A DNA stretch of 64,000 bases from an uncultured Gammaproteobacteria bacterium. Its GTDB lineage: Bacteria; Patescibacteriota; Patescibacteriia; SG8-24; DYFX01. The position numbers and the translations under genes are program-made. Where the stretch lies: contig CAYNUS010000001.1 in NCBI GenBank assembly GCA_964400625.1, positions 116,606-180,605 of the forward strand. The letters are read 5' to 3'. This document shows positions 1,794 to 28,578 of the stretch, in pieces. Each line of letters opens with the position of its first letter. Position 1 is the stretch's first letter. Below the pieces are notes generated by a model. The model saw only the letters and a list, made by a program, of their open reading frames with translations, was not told the DNA's origin and did not search any database.

Positions 1794-1820
1794 GGTCAAA
1801 AAAATGGGCTAGAGGCCCAT
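1794..1820 (-). terminator. Rho-independent terminator of the CYTH gene
   Basis: Hairpin ATGGGC-ctcta-GCCCAT (containing the stop codon) followed by T7 on the minus strand. Confidence 0.6.
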
Positions 1821-2357
1821 GAGTTTGAGAGTCTTCTTCTGTTCCGATTTCGGCCAGCGCGAGAACGGCTTCACCGCCAGGTTCTTGTTCTTGAAGCGGG
1901 GGTCGGCCGTGACCTCCGGTCCGATCCAATCCGGGAACGCGTCGGGGTCGAGCGAGTAGCCTTTCGTCGGCGTCTCGATCTCGGCGACGACGAGCCGGGC
2001 GTTGTCGCCGCGGAAGACGTCGACTTCCCATGCCAGGCCGTCGAACCCGGCGGCGATCTCGTAGCGCGTCTTCTCGACGATCGCGGCGACGCGCGTCGCG
2101 TAGGTCTCGAGCAGCAGGCGGCCGTGCGCGGCGTCGAGCGCCCCGCATTCGATCTCGAGGTCGTCCTCGCCCTTGATCTCGAGGACGTACGACGCGCGGC
2201 CGATCTCGCGCACGCGCACCTGGGCGGGAGCGAGCGCGAGGTAGCCTTGCCGGATCTCCTTCCGCAGCGCCGCGCGCTTCTCCCGCGAAGCGTCGAAGCG
2301 GCGCTCCAGGACGAGGAACTTCCGCTCGTATTCCTTGCCGGGCGTGAGCTTGGGCAT
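1809..2357 (-). CDS. CYTH-domain protein (triphosphate tunnel metalloenzyme; class IV adenylate cyclase / triphosphatase family)
   Basis: N-terminal EYERKFLV matches the CYTH ExExK signature; 182 aa. Confidence 0.75.
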   Translation of the reverse strand: MPKLTPGKEYERKFLVLERRFDASREKRAALRKEIRQGYLALAPAQVRVREIGRASYVLEIKGEDDLEIECGALDAAHGRLLLETYATRVAAIVEKTRYEIAAGFDGLAWEVDVFRGDNARLVVAEIETPTKGYSLDPDAFPDWIGPEVTADPRFKNKNLAVKPFSRWPKSEQKKTLKLMGL

Positions 2358-3550: not shown

Positions 3551-5617
3551 CTAGTATTCGCTGATGTCGCGGAGCAGGCCCGAGCGCTTCTTCGGCTCGC
3601 CGTGCTCGTCGTAGGTGATGGTCGGGAGGTCGTCGTAGGATTCCTCGATGCGGACGTCCTCGACGAGGCCGCCGGAGATCTCCTCGAGGAACTCGGACTT
3701 CGGTTCGAACGAGAAGGCGTCGTAGCCGACCGAGAGCGGATACGAGAGGCACAGGTCGCGGCGGGCGCGCGTGCAGGCCACGTAGAAGAGGCGGCGCTCC
3801 TCCTCGATGCCGCCCTCGTCGAGCAGGGCGCGCTTGTTCGGGAAGGCGCCTTGCGTCATGTGGATGACGAAGACGGCGTCCCATTCGAGGCCTTTGGCCT
3901 GGTGGATGGTGGAGAGCACGACCTTCCCTTCGGAATCGTCTTCCGCGGTCAGGATGCGCGCGTTCTTGCCGGCGGAGGCGATGTCGTCGCGGAGCGCGGC
4001 GTCGGCGAGGAAGGCGGCGGCGTCGGGATACGATTCGGCGAAACCGGCGAGCTGTTCGAGGTCTTCCAGGCGGTCGCGGTAGTCCGGATACTCGTTCTCC
4101 AGATACGCCTTGTAGTCCGAATCGGCGACGGCACGGAGCATGGACGACGGCGAAGGCCGCGCGTCGAGCAGCGCGTCGTAGACTTCGAGGAAGCGCTTCC
4201 AGCCGCCGGAGATGCGGGCGGGCAATCCTGCCACGAGTTCCGGGCCGATGTCGTCCTCATGCGAGGCCGCGCGGACGCGCTCGAAGAGCTTCATGGCGGC
4301 GACCGGGCCGATGCCGACCTGGAGCGAGAGCACGCGCATCCAGGCGACCTCGTCGTCCTTGTTGACCATGATCTTGAGGAACGAGATGGCGTCCTTGATG
4401 TGGGCGCGGTCGAAGAACTTCGCGCCGCCGCGGTAGTCGTACGGGATGCCGCGCTTCATCAGCTCGAACTCCAGCGCCTGCGAATGGAAGGTGGCGCGGA
4501 AGAGCGCGGCCATGCCGCTGAACGGCACGCCCTCGTCGCGCAGTTCGAGCATGCGCTGGGCGATGAATTCGGCCTCCTGCGCGCCGGAGGCGGCGTTCAC
4601 GAGCGACGGCTTGGCGAACGGCGGGCGCATGCTCTTCAGCTCCTTGGGGAACTGGTTGGCGTTGCGGCCGATGATGTCGTTTGCGAGGTCCAGGATCTCC
4701 GGCGTCGAGCGGTAGTTGGTCTCGAGGCGGAAGGTCTTGGCGCCGGGGAAGATGCGGGGGAAGTCGAGGATATTGCGGATGTCGGCGCCGCGGAAGGAGT
4801 AGATCGACTGCGCGTCGTCCCCCACCACGAGCACGTTGCCGTGGACGGAGGCGAGCAGGCGCACGATCTCGGCCTGCAGGCGGTTGGTGTCCTGATACTC
4901 GTCGACGAGGATGTAGCGGAACTGCTTCGCGTACCGTTCGCGCGATTCCTCGTCCTCGCGGAGCAGGCGCGCGGCGAGCGCGAGGAGGTCGTCGAAATCG
5001 ACGGCGTTCGAGGCGCGCTTCTTGCGGAGATAGGCGGAGGTGACTTCCTCGATGGACGGCAGGATGTCGCGGAAGCTCGGGTGCTTGGCCTCGACGACGT
5101 CGGCGACGGGCATCCCGGCGTTCACGGCGTACGACGCGAGCGACAGGAGCACGGCCGGGCTCGGGAAGCGCTTGGCCTTGGTGTCGACGCCCGCCTCGCG
5201 CACGCAGGATTTCATCAGGTCGCGCGCGTCCTCGGCGTCGAGGATCGTGAAGCCTTCGCGCAGGCCGACGCGGACGCCGCGCTCGCGCAGGATGCGGTGG
5301 CAGACATGGTGGAAGGTGCCGCCCCACATGCGGCCCGGCTCGGCGCCGATGAGCGAGGAGACGCGTTCGAGCATCTCCTTGGCGGCCTTGTTGGTGAACG
5401 TCAAAAGCAGGATCTCGCCGGGCGCGACGCCTTTCCCGATGAGATACGCCACGCGGTAGACGATGGTGCGCGTCTTGCCGGAGCCCGCACCGGCGAGCAC
5501 CAGGCACGGTCCGTCGCCGTTCTTCACGACGTCGAGCTGTTCGCCGTTGAGTTCCGCGTCGTAGTCGATGGAGAACTCGGGGATGCCTCCGTGCTTCTTG
5601 AGGACGTACGTTTTCAT
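3551..5617 (-). CDS. UvrD/PcrA/Rep-family ATP-dependent DNA helicase
   Basis: MKTYVLKK...LVLAGAGSGKTRTIVYRVAYLI (Walker A), ILLLTFTNKAAKEM, VDEYQDTN and C-terminal VACTRAR motifs. Start trimmed from the track ORF 5788 to the ATG at 5617. Confidence 0.9.
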   Translation of the reverse strand: MKTYVLKKHGGIPEFSIDYDAELNGEQLDVVKNGDGPCLVLAGAGSGKTRTIVYRVAYLIGKGVAPGEILLLTFTNKAAKEMLERVSSLIGAEPGRMWGGTFHHVCHRILRERGVRVGLREGFTILDAEDARDLMKSCVREAGVDTKAKRFPSPAVLLSLASYAVNAGMPVADVVEAKHPSFRDILPSIEEVTSAYLRKKRASNAVDFDDLLALAARLLREDEESRERYAKQFRYILVDEYQDTNRLQAEIVRLLASVHGNVLVVGDDAQSIYSFRGADIRNILDFPRIFPGAKTFRLETNYRSTPEILDLANDIIGRNANQFPKELKSMRPPFAKPSLVNAASGAQEAEFIAQRMLELRDEGVPFSGMAALFRATFHSQALEFELMKRGIPYDYRGGAKFFDRAHIKDAISFLKIMVNKDDEVAWMRVLSLQVGIGPVAAMKLFERVRAASHEDDIGPELVAGLPARISGGWKRFLEVYDALLDARPSPSSMLRAVADSDYKAYLENEYPDYRDRLEDLEQLAGFAESYPDAAAFLADAALRDDIASAGKNARILTAEDDSEGKVVLSTIHQAKGLEWDAVFVIHMTQGAFPNKRALLDEGGIEEERRLFYVACTRARRDLCLSYPLSVGYDAFSFEPKSEFLEEISGGLVEDVRIEESYDDLPTITYDEHGEPKKRSGLLRDISEY

Positions 5618-5942: not shown

Positions 5943-6734
5943 CTAGATGAGCTTCAGCGCGGCGCGCACGGCGAGCTTCTTCATCCGGCCGATGCCGAAG
6001 ACCGAAGCGTAGCGGTCAAGCTGGGGTTCGAGGTAGGTCCAGGCGTCGTGCGTGATGCCCGGAGCTTCGCGGAGCGCGGCGAGGGCGGTCTTCGCCAGGT
6101 CCTTGCGGGACCGGACGCGGCCTTCGAGCGCCGCGAACGCTTCCGCGACGAACGGCGTGCCCCAGGCGGCGCTCGCCGGGAGCTCGAAGGCGGCGATGGC
6201 GCCGAGCGCGTCGGCGTCGTCCTTCGACACGGCGAGGCGTCCCGCTTCCGCCAGGGCGAAGCGGCGTTCGCGGCCGAAGCCGGCGCCCATCGACTGGAGC
6301 GGCCAGTGGAACTGCGCGAACTGCGTCTCGCCGATCTTGCCGGCCTTCCCGAACGCGAGCTCGAGCGCGAGCGCCGAGAGCCCGAGACGGATCCAGGGAC
6401 CCGGCCGCGAAGGCTCGAGACGTCCGAAGTCCAGGTGCCCGGGCGCGTCGAGGAACGGGTCCGGCTCCTTGAGCTGATATGCGAGGACGCGGATGCAGCT
6501 TTCGGCATGCTCGGTCGCGAGGACCGTCACGTTCCGGCGCGGTTCGGCGCCGGAGAGCGATCGGCCGAGCGCGGCCTGGAGCCAGGTGTGGGCGCAGGCG
6601 GCCTTGCGGAGCATGGCGAAGAACGGCTGGTCGGCCTTGTCCACGTAGAGTCCGTGGAAGCCGGCCGAACGCAGCGGATGGTACGGGTCTTCGAGCGCTT
6701 CCGCGTTGGCGTGCAGGTACTCCGAGACGTTCAT
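5943..6734 (-). CDS. Hypothetical protein (263 aa)
   Basis: Coding-like ORF with GGAGG RBS 4 nt upstream; own TTGACG-17-TAGACA promoter in 6735-6800; no recognised family. Confidence 0.55.
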   Translation of the reverse strand: MNVSEYLHANAEALEDPYHPLRSAGFHGLYVDKADQPFFAMLRKAACAHTWLQAALGRSLSGAEPRRNVTVLATEHAESCIRVLAYQLKEPDPFLDAPGHLDFGRLEPSRPGPWIRLGLSALALELAFGKAGKIGETQFAQFHWPLQSMGAGFGRERRFALAEAGRLAVSKDDADALGAIAAFELPASAAWGTPFVAEAFAALEGRVRSRKDLAKTALAALREAPGITHDAWTYLEPQLDRYASVFGIGRMKKLAVRAALKLI

Positions 6735-22579: not shown

Positions 22580-22993
22580 TCACCACTCGCCTCTCGGCGC
22601 CTTCCGCGACTTCTTCTTCTCGCCCACGATCCGCTTCTGCTCGACGCGCTTCCGCTTCTGCGCGCGGCTGACCTTCGTCGGCGTCCGCTTCTTCCGCGGC
22701 GCGAGCGCCCGCGCGACGAGCGCGTTCAGCCGCCGGATGGCTTCCTCCCTGTTCCGCGGCTGCGACCGCTCCGATTCCGCCGCCAGCACGATCTCGTCTT
22801 CCTTGTTCAACAGCTTCCCAGCGAACACGCGGATCAAGGCCTTCTGTTCATCCGTAAACGCCGCCGAAGCGCCGACGTTCCACCGCACCTGGGCCTTGCT
22901 CGACACCTTGTTCACATTCTGCCCGCCGGGCCCGGAGGAACGGGCGAAGTCGAGGTGGAGTTCGGAGGTGGGGATGTTGGGATTAGAAATCAT
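22580..22993 (-). CDS. arfB: Alternative ribosome-rescue factor ArfB (peptidyl-tRNA hydrolase, RF-like GGQ protein)
   Basis: SGPGGQNVNKV GGQ motif and basic C-terminal tail; 137 aa. Confidence 0.85.
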   Translation of the reverse strand: MISNPNIPTSELHLDFARSSGPGGQNVNKVSSKAQVRWNVGASAAFTDEQKALIRVFAGKLLNKEDEIVLAAESERSQPRNREEAIRRLNALVARALAPRKKRTPTKVSRAQKRKRVEQKRIVGEKKKSRKAPRGEW

Positions 22994-23004
22994 TCAAATC
23001 CCAA

Positions 23005-23526
23005 CTAGAGGGTCGGAGCGAGATACTTCTCAACCAGGGTCTCGTACTCCTCATAAATCTTGGGGTCGATTTTCCAACCGCCTTCGTTCATCATCGGGTG
23101 ACAGGCCAAGGTCCCGTTCTCAGCAAGATATGGAGCATCAGCAACTTGGAAAAATGGTTTCTGCGTGGAATTTACGAAGACGACCTTCGCATTCCAAAAA
23201 CTACCGATCTTTTCGAGTCGCGCTCGATCTTTTTTATGAGGAAGGCCATGCATTCGGAACTTCACCTCAACGAAAATCGATTCTCCAGAATCTGTAATCA
23301 CGATAAAGTCTGGAATAGATCGGATGCGCTCGCCAGCATCACTGTATCTATCAAAAATATTCTTGATCTGCGTCAGGTTTTGAAGAATCGCCTCATAACC
23401 AAAGCGGTATACGGTGTTGCCTGATTTTTTCAGCAACTCTTCAACCAACGTTTCAGCCATACGACCCTTGAGCACTGATTCGGGGTCGAAGTTGCTTTCA
23501 CTCTTGCTGACGTAATCCTTCGTCAT
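23005..23526 (-). CDS. PD-(D/E)xK nuclease-fold protein (Hjc/YraN-like core with ~80-aa C-terminal extension), horizontally acquired
   Basis: Real start MTKDYVSK at ATG (rc) 23524-23526. Core AETLVEELLKKSGNTVYR...IPDFIVITDSGESIFVEVKFR matches the E...PD...(D/E)xK arrangement. Local GC about 46% versus about 68-70% in flanks. The track ORF 24948 extension is an antisense-of-gpmI artefact. Confidence 0.75.
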   Translation of the reverse strand: MTKDYVSKSESNFDPESVLKGRMAETLVEELLKKSGNTVYRFGYEAILQNLTQIKNIFDRYSDAGERIRSIPDFIVITDSGESIFVEVKFRMHGLPHKKDRARLEKIGSFWNAKVVFVNSTQKPFFQVADAPYLAENGTLACHPMMNEGGWKIDPKIYEEYETLVEKYLAPTL

Positions 23527-23537
23527 ATACCTACGAC

Positions 23538-25109
23538 TCAAATCAACGGCCTCCCCGTCATATCCTGCGGCTGAGGAATCCCCATGATGCGGAGCACCGT
23601 CGGCGTGACGTCGGAAAGCATCCCGACCGGGGGCGAGAGGCTCAAGTCCCCTCCCACCATTTCCTGCGCTTCGCCGGCCATGCCTTCGAACTGGCGGCCG
23701 ATGACGATGAGCGGGACGGGGTACGTCGAATGTTCCTTGTCGATGGAACCGGTCTGGAGGTTCACGACTTCCTCGGCGTTGCCGTGGTCGGCGGTGACGA
23801 CCATGGCGCCGTCCTTGGCGAGCACGGCGTCCGCGATCTTGCCCACGCATTCGTCGACGACCTCGGCGGCTTTCTTGGTGGCCTCGAGGTTTCCGGTATG
23901 CCCCACCATGTCGCCGTTGGCGAAGTTCACGGCGATGAGGTCGTAGGTACCCGCGTCGATCTCCTTCAGGATGCGGTCGGTGAGCTCGCGCGCGGACATC
24001 TCCGGCTGCTGGTCGTACGACGGCACCTTCGGCGACGGCACGATGGCGCGGTCCTCGCCCGGATACGGATCTTCCTTCATGCCGTTCAGGAAGAACGTCA
24101 CGTGCGCGTACTTCTCCGTCTCGGCGATGTGCAGCTGCTTCATCCCCGCGTCGGAGACGACCTTGGCGAGGCAGGTGGAGATGGGCTGGGGCGGGAAGGC
24201 GACCTCGGCGGGGAGATCCTTCTCGAACTCCGACATCGTCACGAACTTCAGCTCGCGCATGTACGGCCGCTCGAACTTGTCGAAGCTCGGCAGGACGAAG
24301 GCCTTCGTGAGCTCGCGGGCGCGGTCCGGGCGGAAGTTGAAGAAGATGACGGAGTCGCCGTCCTTGATGCTGCCGACGGGCTGGCCGCCTTCGGTGATGA
24401 CGGTCGGCACGAACTCCTCGTCGTAGACCTTGGCTTCGTAGGAGGCCTTGATGGCGGCGATCGGGTCGGTCGCGGTCGCGTCGGCCTTGCCGTCGACCAT
24501 CGCGCGGTACGCCTTCTCGACGCGGTCCCAGCGGTTGTCGCGGTCCATCGCGTAGAAGCGTCCGGAGAGCGAGGCGACCTTGCCGACGCCGTTCTGCCTC
24601 ATGCGCTCCATCGCGCGGCCGACGAAGTCGACGCCCGCGTTGAAGGTCGTGTCGCGTCCGTCGAGGATGGCGTGCAGGAAGAGTTCCTTCACGCCGCCGG
24701 CCTTGGCCATGTCGAGGAGCGCGAGGAGATGCTCGAGCGAGGCGTGGACGTTGCCGATCGAGGTGAGGCCGACGAGATGCACCTTGCCGCCGTTCAGCTG
24801 GGCGTGCTCGAAGGCGCCGAGGATGACACGGTTCCTCGCGAACTCGCCGCTCTGGATGGAGCGGTTGATGCGCGGGAGGCTCTGGTAATACACCTTGCCG
24901 GCGCCGATCGTGAGATGGCCCACTTCGGAATTGCCCATCTCGCCCCACATGAGGCCGACCTCTTCGCCCGAGGCGAGGACGGTCATGGCGGGATATTTGG
25001 CGGCGAATTCGCGGAGGCGCGGCGTCTCGGCCAGCGCGAGCGCGTTTCCGGAATCCGGCGGAGCGACGCCCCAGCCGTCGAGGATGGCGAGCACGATGGG
25101 TTTGGCCAT
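23538..25109 (-). CDS. gpmI: 2,3-bisphosphoglycerate-independent phosphoglycerate mutase, copy 1
   Basis: MAKPIVLAILDGWG..., full-length iPGM; GGAGG RBS. Confidence 0.92.
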   Translation of the reverse strand: MAKPIVLAILDGWGVAPPDSGNALALAETPRLREFAAKYPAMTVLASGEEVGLMWGEMGNSEVGHLTIGAGKVYYQSLPRINRSIQSGEFARNRVILGAFEHAQLNGGKVHLVGLTSIGNVHASLEHLLALLDMAKAGGVKELFLHAILDGRDTTFNAGVDFVGRAMERMRQNGVGKVASLSGRFYAMDRDNRWDRVEKAYRAMVDGKADATATDPIAAIKASYEAKVYDEEFVPTVITEGGQPVGSIKDGDSVIFFNFRPDRARELTKAFVLPSFDKFERPYMRELKFVTMSEFEKDLPAEVAFPPQPISTCLAKVVSDAGMKQLHIAETEKYAHVTFFLNGMKEDPYPGEDRAIVPSPKVPSYDQQPEMSARELTDRILKEIDAGTYDLIAVNFANGDMVGHTGNLEATKKAAEVVDECVGKIADAVLAKDGAMVVTADHGNAEEVVNLQTGSIDKEHSTYPVPLIVIGRQFEGMAGEAQEMVGGDLSLSPPVGMLSDVTPTVLRIMGIPQPQDMTGRPLI

Positions 25110-25181: not shown

Positions 25182-25691
25182 TCAGCCGTCGCCGTTCAGG
25201 AGCAGGGCGGAGGGCTGGGTCTCGAGCAGGGAGCGGATCGTGAGCGTGCCGGCGTCATAGGCCGCGAGGGTCGCGGCGCTGAAGCGTCCGCCCTGGGCGC
25301 TGGCCAGGAGCTGGCGCTCGGTCGCGCCGCAGCGCGCGAGGAACGCCGGCGCGTCGCGGATCATCTCCATGAGCGGCGTGCGGAACATCTTCAGCGCGTC
25401 CGTCATCATGGCGGCCATCTCGCCGACCGGCATGGGCAGAAGGTCCGCGGGGATCGCGCCGAACAGCTTCTCGACGAACCCGGAGTCCAGGCAGTGCTCG
25501 GTCACGGCCAGCTTGGCCTCCATCATGGCCGGCAGGTCGATCGCGCGATCGAGCTGACCGACGAGCACGGCGGGCAGGTCGTCGACCAGCTCGCGGAAGA
25601 CGGGCTGGGCCTGCTCGGGCATGCCGGCGGTGAACGCGGGATCGGCCATGAGGCTGTCCCAGATCTTCTTCGTATCCAAAGGTGCGGACAT
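25182..25691 (-). CDS. Hypothetical protein (169 aa)
   Basis: Coding-like composition, own terminator; GGAGG-like RBS (rc of cctccagg). Confidence 0.5.
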   Translation of the reverse strand: MSAPLDTKKIWDSLMADPAFTAGMPEQAQPVFRELVDDLPAVLVGQLDRAIDLPAMMEAKLAVTEHCLDSGFVEKLFGAIPADLLPMPVGEMAAMMTDALKMFRTPLMEMIRDAPAFLARCGATERQLLASAQGGRFSAATLAAYDAGTLTIRSLLETQPSALLLNGDG

Positions 25692-25744: not shown

Positions 25745-27319
25745 TCAGTCGGACAGCAGCGAACGTCCCGTCATCTCCTCGGGCGGACGGATGCCCATGA
25801 CGTCGAGGATCGTCGGGGCGACGTCGCCGAGCACGCCGCGCGGCAGTTCGCGGTAGCCCTTGAGCGCCTTGCTCGCGATCACGAACGGCACCGGGTTCAC
25901 GCTGTGCTCCGTCTCGATGGCGCCCGTCGTGACGTCGATCATCTCCTCGACGTTGCCGTGGTCGGCGGTGACGACGAGCGTGCCGTCCAGCTCCTGGACC
26001 GCTTCCCACAGGCGGCCGATGCAGGCGTCGATGACCTCGAGGGCGCGCACGGAGGCGTCGAGATTGCCCGTGTGCGAGACCATGTCCGCGTTCGCGTAGT
26101 TCAAGGCGATGAAGTGGTACGCGCCGGTCTTGAGCTTCTTGAGCACCTGCGTCGTGAGCTCCTCGGCCATCATCTCGGGCGCCATGTCGTAGCGCGGGAT
26201 CTTGAGCGACTCCACCTTGAGGCGCTCCTCGCCGAACTGCGTGTCGGCGTAGCCGCCGTTGAAGAAGAACGTGATGTGCGAGAACTTCTCGGATTCGGCG
26301 GCGTAGAGCTGCTTCTTCCCCTGGAGCACGGCGGGCAGGGCGTTCTTGATGTCGCGGCCCGGGTAGGCGGTGAGGACGAAGGGCAGGTCGGGGCCGAAGT
26401 CCGTCATGGCGGCGAAGCGCGTGTTGTCCGGCCAACGGCGGCGCGTGAAGGCGCCCGGCACGGCCGTCTCGAAATCCGGCATCACGAGCGCCTTGGTGAG
26501 CTGGCGCGCGCGGTCGGAGCGCAGGTTGAAGAAGACGAAGACGTCGTCGTCCTGCGCGACGGCGACAGGTTTCATCTCGCGGTCGACGATGACCGTCGGC
26601 AGGATGAACTCGTCCGTCTCGCCGCGGTTGTAGGCCTGGAGGAGCGCCGTCTCGGCCGAGGGCGCCGCGAGGCCTTCGCCGTTCACGATGGCGTGGTACG
26701 CGAGCTCGACGCGCTCCCAGTTGCGGTTGCGGTCCATCGGGAAGAAGCGCCCCATCACCGTGGCGATGCGCTCGCCGGGCCGCAGGCGCGACTCGATCTC
26801 GTGGATCTGCGCGGGCGCGGCGAAGCGCGGCCCGTCGCGGCCGTCGGTGAAGAGGTGCAGGGCGATGTCGCGGAGCTCCATGCGCCGGCAGGTCTCGAGC
26901 AGGCCGTAGAGATGCTCCATCGAGGCGTGCGCGGAGCGGCCGTTCGAGACCATGCCCATGAGATGCACGCGCGTGCCGTACTTCTGCGCGTGCTTGAGCG
27001 CCTCGATGATGGCCGTGTTCTTGAAGAACGTGCCGTCCTCGATGGCCTCGTTGATGTAGACCGCGTCCTGCTTCACGATGCGGCCCGCGCCGAGGTTCAT
27101 GTGGCCCGCTTCGGAATTGCCCGGCTGGCCCTTGGGAAGCCCGACGTGGCGTCCGTGCGCGAAAAGCTCCGTGTGGGGATAGTGCTCCCACAGGTCCATC
27201 ATGGTCGGCATCGCGGCCATGAGCACCGCGTTGCCTTGGAGCCCGGCCGGCGCCGAACCGAAGCCGTCGCAGATGGCCAGCACCACGGGCTTCACCTTGT
27301 CTCCCCCTTTGTCGGGCAT
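25745..27319 (-). CDS. gpmI: 2,3-bisphosphoglycerate-independent phosphoglycerate mutase, copy 2 (divergent paralog)
   Basis: [21 protein letters not shown]... Start ATG overlaps the eno stop (TGATG). Start trimmed from track ORF 28072. Confidence 0.9.
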   Translation of the reverse strand: MPDKGGDKVKPVVLAICDGFGSAPAGLQGNAVLMAAMPTMMDLWEHYPHTELFAHGRHVGLPKGQPGNSEAGHMNLGAGRIVKQDAVYINEAIEDGTFFKNTAIIEALKHAQKYGTRVHLMGMVSNGRSAHASMEHLYGLLETCRRMELRDIALHLFTDGRDGPRFAAPAQIHEIESRLRPGERIATVMGRFFPMDRNRNWERVELAYHAIVNGEGLAAPSAETALLQAYNRGETDEFILPTVIVDREMKPVAVAQDDDVFVFFNLRSDRARQLTKALVMPDFETAVPGAFTRRRWPDNTRFAAMTDFGPDLPFVLTAYPGRDIKNALPAVLQGKKQLYAAESEKFSHITFFFNGGYADTQFGEERLKVESLKIPRYDMAPEMMAEELTTQVLKKLKTGAYHFIALNYANADMVSHTGNLDASVRALEVIDACIGRLWEAVQELDGTLVVTADHGNVEEMIDVTTGAIETEHSVNPVPFVIASKALKGYRELPRGVLGDVAPTILDVMGIRPPEEMTGRSLLSD

Positions 27320-28578
27320 CAGGCTTCGGTTTCGTCTTCGATCTCCGTCAGGCGGTTGTACTTCTCGAGGCGCTCGCTGCGCGAGAGCGATCCGGTCTTG
27401 ATGAACTCCGCGCCGGTCGCGACCGCGAGGTCGGCGATGAAGGTGTCGGCGGTCTCTCCGGAGCGGTGCGAGACGGCGACCTTGTAGCCGTGCTGCTGCG
27501 CCATGCGGATGGCGTCGATGGTCTCGGAGAGCGAGCCGATCTGGTTCACCTTGATCAGGATGGCGTTGGCCACGCCCTCGCGGATGCCCTTGCGCAGGCG
27601 CTCGACGTTCGTGACGAAGAGGTCGTCGCCGACGAGCGCGAGCTTCTTGCCGAGCGCGTCCGTCAGGAGCTTCCAGCCGTCCCAGTCGTCTTCGGCGCAG
27701 CCGTCCTCGAGCGAGATGAGCGGATACTTGGCGGCGAGCGCCTTCCACATCGCGACCATGCCCTTGGCGTCGAGCTTCTTGCCGTCGGTCTTGAGGATAT
27801 ACTTCTTCTTTTTCGCGTCGTAGAACTCGGAGGCGGCCGGGTCGGTGCCGAAGGCCACGTCCTTGCCGAGCTTGTACTTGGCCTTGCGCACGGCCGCGGC
27901 CATGAGCTCGAAGGCCTGCGCGTTCTTCTTCAGTTTCGGCGCGAAGCCGCCTTCGTCGCCGACGCCGACGGAGAAGCCCTTGTCCTTCAGGATGCCGCGC
28001 AGCGCATGGAAGACTTCCGAGCCGCAGCGGAGGCGGTCGCGGAACTTCCGCTGCTTCGGGATGATCATGCATTCCTGAAAGTCGATGCTCCAGCCGGCGT
28101 GCGCGCCGCCGTTCATGACGTTCATCATCGGGAGCGGCAGGCGGTACGCGTCGCGCGGAAGGTCGTAGACGTCGCGAAGGTAGCGGTAGAGCGGGAGGCC
28201 GAGCGAGGTGGCGCCGGCGCGGGCGGCGGCCAAGGAGACGCCGAGGATGGCGTTGGCGCCGAGCTTCTCCTTGTTGTGCGTGCCGTCGAGGTCGCGCATC
28301 TTGCCGTCGATCTTGCGCTGTTCCTGCACCTCCATGCCGCGGAGCGCGTCGGCGATGGGGCCGTCGACGTTCCTGATGGCCTTCAGCACCCCGAGCCCGC
28401 GGTAGCGGCGCTTGTCGCCGTCGCGCATCTCGAGCGCCTCATGGACGCCGGTGGAAGCGCCCGAAGGCACCGAGGCCTTGGCCACGGTGCCGTCGGAGAG
28501 CGTCATCTTCACCTCGACGGTCGGGTTGCCGCGCGAATCGAGGATCTCGCGGCCTTTGATTTCCCTGATGGTGGGCAT
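27319..28578 (-). CDS. eno: Enolase
   Basis: [23 protein letters not shown]... Confidence 0.95.

Follow-up and report, generated by a model that had tools for sequence, protein, structure and literature searches.

A low-GC gene encoding a predicted Hjc-like PD-(D/E)xK nuclease between gpmI and arfB in a Patescibacteria genome

The 64-kb stretch of DNA analyzed here (the window) carries, between the host genes gpmI and arfB, a foreign gene encoding a 173-aa nuclease which is missing at the same site in related genomes. The product shows an Hjc-like fold with the E-D-ExK residues, the gene has no conserved partner, and its family is under strong purifying selection. On balance, we think it probable that this gene is a recently acquired single-gene cassette encoding a stand-alone, Mg2+-dependent, Hjc-like DNA endonuclease, and that it belongs to a patchy CPR/DPANN family which is spreading horizontally. 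This family is a new and still unnamed one within a well-known superfamily, and nothing relevant was found in the literature on Hjc and Patescibacteria.

The low-GC insert and the equivalent site in related genomes

The nuclease ORF is located on the minus strand at positions 23005..23526 (ATG at 23526, TAG at 23005-23007) and is intact, with 173 codons and a stop codon. Its GC content amounts to 46.4% and its GC3 to 54%, versus 66.4% GC in the whole window, 65.2% (GC3 88%) in arfB and 65.9% (GC3 92%) in gpmI. The arfB, gpmI, and tgt genes all have GC contents of 65-66% and GC3 values of 88-92%, so that the GC3 of the nuclease gene lies 34-38 points under that of its neighbors. When the composition was calculated in 400-nt windows, this island turned out to be the deepest trough of the 64 kb (minimum 44%, z = -7.1 vs. 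the rest). The second-lowest dip (1400-2000, about 53%) spans the 3' end of a 182-aa ORF (1809-2357, minus strand), which is presumably CYTH-like, judging by eye, and the adjacent intergenic region. No tRNA or tmRNA genes were detected by ARAGORN and no Rfam families at the gathering score anywhere in the window.

The upstream host gene gpmI (23538..25109, minus strand) encodes a 2,3-bisphosphoglycerate-independent phosphoglycerate mutase (Pfam iPGM_N and Metalloenzyme), and the downstream gene arfB (22580..22993, minus strand) encodes a 137-aa RF-1-domain peptidyl-tRNA hydrolase (Pfam RF-1), the homologs of which are named ArfB by NCBI. Beyond arfB, a 136-aa ORF without any Pfam match is followed by the NUDIX hydrolase and TGT genes. 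Upstream, a second gpmI paralog (25745-27322, minus strand) is arranged in tandem with the first one, and a 169-aa ORF without any Pfam match (25182-25691) lies between the two. The order PGK, SIMPL, enolase, gpmI-2, (ORF), gpmI is kept in the relatives L055-L064.

The spacers between the gpmI stop and the nuclease ATG (GTCGTAGGTAT; 23527..23537, minus strand) and between the nuclease stop and the arfB ATG (TTGGGATTTGA; 22994..23004, minus strand) are both 11 nt long. The ribosome-binding site of the nuclease gene is weak, since the SD-like AGG sits only 3 nt ahead of the ATG. The first-pass annotation, which had described a low-GC island (about 46%) with 11-nt gaps to gpmI and arfB and a weak ribosome-binding site, thus proved accurate, and Pfam confirmed the identity of the two neighbors. 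The upstream spacer is too short to hold a promoter, no promoter-like or terminator-like sites were found on the minus strand between gpmI and arfB, and a promoter-like site is present upstream of gpmI (25147-25119, minus strand). Since the gaps hold neither a promoter nor a terminator, gpmI is the likely source of the nuclease transcript, which would be produced by read-through and translated from the weak ribosome-binding site. An RNA hairpin (GUUGGGAUUUGAAUGAUUUCUAAUCCCAAC; 22976..23005, minus strand) has the G of the nuclease stop codon as its first base and hides the SD-like GGGA and the AUG of arfB (-15.4 kcal/mol, z -3.9; none of 200 shuffles was equally stable). No equivalent hairpin was observed at the arfB starts of L063 and L065. 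Via this hairpin, the translation of arfB may now be coupled to the termination of the nuclease ORF.

The host belongs to the Patescibacteria and has a high GC content; among the named homologs of its gpmI and ArfB, the closest are assigned to the Patescibacteria group or to Ca. Uhrbacteria. In four related lineages (L057/58, L061/62, L063/64, and L065), gpmI is followed directly by arfB, without the nuclease gene. The spacer between the two genes measures 21 nt in L057/L058 (where gpmI is 78% identical and the order is enolase, gpmI-2, gpmI, arfB, ..., TGT), 8 nt in L065, 256 nt in L063/L064, and 368 nt in L061/L062, and no remnant of the nuclease was detected by tblastn in the longer spacers. 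The wider gene order up to TGT is common to the window and L063/64, which also have a 169-aa ORF between the gpmI copies and an ORF of about 131 aa after arfB. In the closest gpmI relative, L053 (92%), gpmI is followed not by arfB but by a 126-aa membrane protein gene (L053:1893-2273), and the gap after gpmI is 11 nt, as in the window; a CYTH gene occupies this position in L055 (6586-7101) and a 108-aa lysine-rich ORF in L059 (6700-7026). Since a different gene is present there in each close relative, the position downstream of gpmI is a hot spot of gene turnover, and the gpmI-arfB adjacency is the recurrent state.

The fact that four related lineages have gpmI and arfB without the nuclease indicates that the latter was inserted and is not ancestral, and these empty sites, together with the non-ameliorated GC3, show a recent insertion in the lineage of the window. 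The recent foreign acquisition suggested by the first-pass annotation therefore holds, the comparison of synteny which it had recommended having yielded contiguous gpmI and arfB genes in these lineages and no low-GC orthologs at the same place across the lineage. The relatives with the gpmI-arfB adjacency are too diverged in the spacer for the exact insertion junction to be reconstructed; the end of gpmI fused to the start of arfB gives the synthetic "empty" junction ...CCGTTGATTTGAATGATTTCT....

A conserved non-coding element was observed in or just past the gpmI-arfB spacer of relatives (L063:3745-4000, L061:3790-4000, L055:7102-7312), with partial copies in L053 and L059. It includes an invariant block, CGTCCATGCCCGCGTTGACAAGCATGCGGAA, resembling a -35 TTGACA plus a -10, which is preceded by a tRNA T-arm-like sequence (GGTTCGATTCC) and followed by about 70 nt ending in a hairpin terminator, CTCCCCGAAAGGGGAG(T)n. 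The element looks like a small RNA gene, and it matched neither Rfam at the gathering score nor ARAGORN. It is missing from the window, where the nuclease gene occupies its place.

Motifs, predicted fold and closest known relatives

The nuclease core proposed in the first-pass annotation, composed of E (AETLVEELL), PD (IPDFIV), and ExK (FVEVKFR), is borne out by both the homologs and the predicted structure. These motifs are present in the 173-aa product, and residues E25, P72-D73, and E87-V88-K89 were found to be invariant in 23 aligned homologs, in the order typical of the superfamily: E in helix 1, (P)D in strand 2, and (D/E)xK in strand 3. The AlphaFold2 model based on the family alignment is a confident one (pLDDT 85.5, pTM 0.81) and shows the alpha-beta-beta-beta-alpha-beta core of the PD-(D/E)xK superfamily. 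E25, D73, E87, and K89 are candidate catalytic residues, which would bind the metal and hydrolyze phosphodiester bonds, and the predicted nuclease is probably a homodimer, as in the case of Hjc. When the model was submitted to Foldseek, the first 11 matches were all Hjc. In the best PDB match of the family profile, iPDfiv...fvEvKfr aligns to vPDIIA...LIEVKSR of Hjc ST1444, with a non-significant E-value of 0.2. In view of the model, the Foldseek matches, the profile alignment, and the invariant residues, the assignment to the PD-(D/E)xK superfamily is sound and the nearest known fold is that of Hjc.

The likeness to Hjc and YraN which had been claimed on the basis of the motif order is therefore confirmed as far as the Hjc-like fold is concerned, but not at the level of the Pfam profiles. 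With Hjc (PF01870), the window protein gave no match at E <= 10 and 3 of the 23 members matched (best E 0.024); with YraN/UPF0102 (PF02021), the window protein gave no match and a single member matched at E 0.11. The Pfam matches of the window protein were all sub-threshold ones, with VRR_NUC (16.4 bits vs. a cut-off of 23.8, E 0.0097), DpnII, and TnsA-like N. When the 23 members were scanned one by one, sub-threshold matches were obtained with VRR_NUC in 10 of them, DpnII in 7, TnsA-like in 6, Hjc in 3, and UPF0102 in 1, and the more distant members did not match any Pfam family either. The window protein gave nothing meaningful with NCBIfam, only a weak "endonuclease" match with PHROGs, and no family at E <= 10 with the PADLOC-DB 2.0 defence models. 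Sequence searches of the PDB with either the single sequence or the profile yielded nothing significant. The pI, with values of 5.1 to 9.1 among family members, does not discriminate.

The C-terminal part of about 80 aa, which had been described as an unassigned extension, consists according to the secondary structure mostly of the remainder of the nuclease core: a helix (100-111), two strands (114-119 and 126-129), and the C-terminal helix (155-169). What is specific to the family is a conserved insert (residues ~42-70), located between strands 1 and 2, and a loop (~130-154). The region of the insert includes the invariant residues V39-Y-R-F-G-Y-E-A-I-x-Q-N-L-x-Q53, followed by a lower-confidence loop and a helix (63-69).

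The closest solved structures are those of the archaeal Holliday-junction resolvases Hjc and Hje (PF01870; PDB 1gef, 1ob8, 2wcw, 2eo0), at 12-20% identity. The window protein differs from Hjc in that it has no match at the Pfam threshold (the matches of the 3 members in 23 are weak ones, E >= 0.024) and is about 40-50 aa longer, its family having, between strands 1 and 2, an invariant insert of about 30 aa (YRFGYEAIxQNLTQ...) and, ahead of the C-terminal helix, a long loop. To our knowledge, Hjc is universal and vertically inherited in archaea, whereas the present family has a patchy, mostly bacterial (CPR) distribution and moves horizontally, and junction cleavage is only a putative activity in its case. 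The stand-alone VRR-NUC proteins (PF08774; PDB 4qbn, 4qbo), whose gathering threshold the window protein does not reach, have domains of about 90-100 aa without the insert and the C-terminal elements of this family. YraN/UPF0102 is likewise a small bacterial PD-(D/E)xK protein described as "distantly related to Hjc," and one JGI record labels the family member P0057 as being of the YraN/UPF0102 type, with the same description. Lastly, I-Ssp6803I (PDB 2ost), the PD-(D/E)xK homing endonuclease of the Synechocystis tRNA-fMet intron, shows 16% identity. The gene for I-Ssp6803I, a tetrameric enzyme which homes to a single defined site, lies in a group I intron, whereas the genes of the present family are intergenic and occur at different sites in different genomes.

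Distribution, context and mobility of the family

A word-indexed search (E <= 1e-3) yielded 520 clusters at 90% identity. The best 120 of these 520 are 56-73% identical to the query, apart from its own sequence, P0001 (100%), and the few named sources among them are Parcubacteria/Patescibacteria. Since gpmI returned more than 7,900 clusters by comparison, the nuclease gene can be regarded as an accessory, patchily distributed one. In an exhaustive profile search, 798 clusters at 50% identity were obtained with E <= 1e-3, including 216 with E <= 1e-10; nearly all of these members are single-domain proteins 150-190 aa in length. The named hosts of the family are almost all Patescibacteria or DPANN archaea (Woesearchaeota/Nanoarchaeota). 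A pattern scan of species-representative genomes gave 48 loci, the hosts of which include Paceibacterota, Kaiser-, Jorgensen-, Niyogi-, Nomura-, Taylor-, and Sungiibacteria, along with Woesearchaeota/Nanoarchaeota in the case of five loci (about 40% identity). A few family contigs are assigned to Nitrospirota, Omnitrophota, or Syntrophobacteraceae bins (L007, L014, L025, L026, L041, and L043); of these, at least L007, from an Omnitrophota bin, looks like a mis-binned CPR contig, since its compared flanks do not differ from those of L006, which comes from a Paceibacterota bin of the same study. The MAG JAUSHX01 carries two nuclease copies (L027 and L033) which are 71.5% identical and have different contexts. 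A single domain fusion was observed among the core members, that of P0005 (L005:5977-6693), a 238-aa member with a C-terminal Cys-rich DUF7695 domain (Pfam E 2.7e-10), and an AbiEi gene is located two genes upstream of the nuclease at this locus.

Purifying selection on the family is strong: the median NG86 dN/dS ratio is 0.078 in 88 pairs with at least 72% identity and unsaturated dS, one of which shows 96% amino-acid identity at a dS of 0.92. The median pairwise identity among the 97 dereplicated copies is 59%, and 3 of the 48 genome copies are truncated.

The neighboring genes were clustered twice, in the 48 genome loci and, after 80 metagenome loci had been added, in 97 dereplicated loci, and no conserved partner gene emerged in either case. 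The first-pass annotation had pointed out that no partner gene is visible at the window locus, and this is so not only there but also throughout the family. The commonest neighbor is a small ArsR-family winged-helix protein (8 of the 97 loci, mostly at +1 or -1). At many loci, type I HsdM/HsdR, type III Mod, type IIG Eco57I-like, Mrr_cat plus Zn-ribbon, AbiEi/AbiEii, or OLD/AriA-like ATPase genes occur within two genes, and in one Rifle-aquifer population, HsdR, a PDDEXK_3 protein, and a serine recombinase are encoded near the nuclease. Restriction-modification or defence neighbors are present at about 12-15 of 43 loci (about 30%) according to a rough hand count restricted to these loci. Methyltransferases of three unrelated types occur at only a minority of the family loci, and there is no cognate methyltransferase gene beside the window nuclease, whose neighbors are gpmI, arfB, NUDIX, and TGT. 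In three Woesearchaeota (L047, L048, and L049), the nuclease gene lies in one conserved context, next to a membrane protein gene, with neighbors which we take by eye to be SecY-like and ribosomal-protein-uL15-like; these copies show 94-96% amino-acid identity at dS values of 0.7-1.4, and those of L047 and L049 are still about 10 GC points under their flanks.

The GC content of the nuclease gene is correlated with that of its flanks (r = 0.68, slope 0.53) in the 83 dereplicated loci with enough flanking sequence. In all, 17 of these 83 copies lie at least 8 GC points under their flanks, versus 22 of 345 similar-sized neighbor genes (p = 2e-4), and the gap is most extreme in the case of the window nuclease. 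Gene-sized GC islands were also observed at other loci, low ones in L043, L023, and L012 and high ones in L022 and L030. Since the sequences flanking the ORF are not conserved between loci, the transferred unit consists essentially of the ORF.

Direct repeats were searched for by local alignment of the two 60-nt flanks of each copy, upstream against downstream. Flanking repeats with scores of at least 10 were found in 13.3% of 90 copies versus 3.8% of 339 control genes at the same loci (Fisher p = 0.0017; Mann-Whitney p = 0.0013). They are 10-18 nt long, lie 0-42 nt from the ORF ends, and are unique within the locus where this was checked. In the window, the left copy (GTTGATTTGA; 23538..23547, minus strand) comprises the last codons and the stop of gpmI and is ancestral, since L053 and L059 have the same gpmI end; the right copy (GTTGGGATTTGA; 22994..23005, minus strand) abuts the arfB ATG and is missing upstream of arfB in the relatives, which have an unrelated sequence there. 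The two copies match perfectly over 7 nt, or at 10 of 12 positions with a 2-nt indel, and GATTTGA occurs in the 64 kb only at these two places. Taken individually, this repeat is weak, as, with floating positions, chance alone would account for about 1-3% of such placements, and there are 22 repeat families of at least 7 nt in the 951 nt around it; it is nonetheless consistent with the family-wide pattern of short target duplications. ATATGACG, which is repeated 35 nt apart at the left junction, is a second flanking coincidence, and was treated as probably due to chance. The L015 member is bracketed by a perfect 16-nt palindrome, CTTACTTCGAAGTAAG (24 nt with its flanks; 5964-5979 and 6525-6540), the core of which recurs at 5462, and this palindrome, instead of being a target duplication, may represent a hairpin element repeated in intergenic regions.

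Several known vehicles were considered and set aside. An insertion sequence or transposon does not fit, as only 11 nt flank the ORF on each side and there are no terminal inverted repeats and no transposase domain. The attC site of an integron cassette measures at least 57 nt, reads RYYYAAC ... GTTRRRY, and is located at the 3' end of the cassette; the only 3' palindrome present here is 30 nt long, overlaps the arfB start, and, when compared with this consensus by eye, has the opposite polarity (GTTGGG...CCCAAC). The gene does not have the features of a homing gene, being intergenic and having different neighbors in nearly every genome. Carriage by phages or plasmids was rejected because no homologs were found in 2.9 million IMG/VR viral contigs, 50,697 GenBank phage records, or 72,556 PLSDB plasmids; in BFVD, only generic resolvase- or nuclease-like viral proteins were matched, and these weakly.

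Possible roles of the nuclease and significance of the family

If the gene is a recently acquired cassette encoding a stand-alone Hjc-like endonuclease, illegitimate recombination would have placed a unit of about 545 bp (the ORF plus about 11 nt on each side) after the gpmI stop and ahead of the arfB start, with a short target duplication (GTTG[GG]ATTTGA) as the result. By analogy with Hjc, the substrate would probably be branched or four-way DNA and not a sequence that needs a protecting methyltransferase, which would explain why a lone nuclease is tolerated. A structure-selective nuclease is favored because the three nearest solved families, Hjc, Hje, and VRR-NUC, are junction resolvases, because a lone nuclease without an immunity gene is tolerated in many genomes, here inside a housekeeping operon, and because the conservation is that of an enzyme recognizing an invariant substrate. 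This substrate preference is deduced only from the nearest structural neighbors, at 12-20% identity. A site-specific homing endonuclease ranks third among the matches, so that the fold is compatible with both structure-specific and sequence-specific cutting. In view of the mobile-element and defence neighborhood, a role in DNA conflict or recombination would be more likely than one in core housekeeping.

The patchiness and the restriction-modification or defence neighbors agree no better with a role in recombination than with one in defence or a selfish one, and these roles are not mutually exclusive with Hjc-like chemistry. We regard it as unlikely that the protein is a solitary restriction-type or defence nuclease cutting invading DNA, either a modification-dependent (type IV-like) or an orphan type II enzyme whose sites are protected elsewhere, although the defence genes lying within two genes at about 12-15 of 43 loci (by the rough hand count), the frequent horizontal transfer and patchy distribution, and the weak HMM matches with DpnII and BsuBI/PstI all speak for it. 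A selfish, free-standing homing-type endonuclease gene, i.e., a single-ORF mobile element spreading by cutting genomes which lack a copy, would account for the ORF-only insert, the flanking repeats, and the resemblance to I-Ssp6803I. We take this to be quite unlikely, since the differing insertion sites fit poorly with a single target, there is no evidence of a target site, none of the viral contigs, phage records, and plasmids searched carries the gene, and the strong purifying selection and mostly intact copies contrast with the usual cycle of gain, decay, and loss. The GC content, which tracks that of most hosts (r = 0.68), and the context shared by the three Woesearchaeota also suggest long residence. 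Improbable, too, in our opinion, is a minimal mobile element without any transposase, in which the Hjc-like nuclease encoded by its single ORF would make the break for its own insertion, by cutting, for example, cruciform or branched DNA at intergenic palindromes and leaving target duplications of 7-18 nt. The gene would then move from one intergenic site to another, also across the divide separating CPR bacteria from DPANN archaea, and in the window the translation of the ribosome-rescue factor ArfB would be tied to that of the nuclease.

The ArsR-family winged-helix protein, as the most frequent neighbor (8 of 97 loci, mostly at +1 or -1), and the SocA/Panacea and AbiE genes present nearby at a few loci would suit the toxin of a toxin-antitoxin pair, or a nuclease regulated by a small adjacent repressor. 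This is very improbable, however, because about 90% of the loci, including the window, have no such neighbor, and a toxin without its antitoxin in a housekeeping operon should be lethal. That the ORF might be an ancestral host gene of odd composition, or an artefact of assembly or binning, is favored only by the fact that Patescibacteria in general carry the family, and is hardly credible: the gene is missing from the site in four to five related lineages, its GC3 differs from that of its neighbors by the 34-38 points mentioned above, and the junctions are identical, besides the source contig, in three independent short-read Logan assemblies (L001-L003), so that the insert is no chimera.

With a recently acquired cassette encoding a stand-alone Hjc-like endonuclease as the preferred reading, the window provides a clean and datable case of single-gene horizontal transfer into a CPR housekeeping operon, for which empty sites are available in relatives. 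The horizontal transfer of a solitary nuclease gene is commonplace; what goes beyond routine here is that the family occurs in both CPR bacteria and DPANN archaea, that a patchy mobile gene is constrained as strongly as a housekeeping gene, and that there is a statistical hint of target duplications without a transposase. The conservation of this unnamed family is similar to that of core enzymes (dN/dS about 0.08), yet the family is patchy and mobile, and it is common to the Patescibacteria and DPANN archaea, both of which are ultra-small, probably episymbiotic organisms sharing habitats. As a junction resolvase, the nuclease may provide reduced genomes with recombination functions; as a defence or self-mobilizing nuclease, it would be a very small new player in CPR/DPANN genome conflict. 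Whichever applies, an enzyme of such compact size (about 170 aa) should be readily characterizable.
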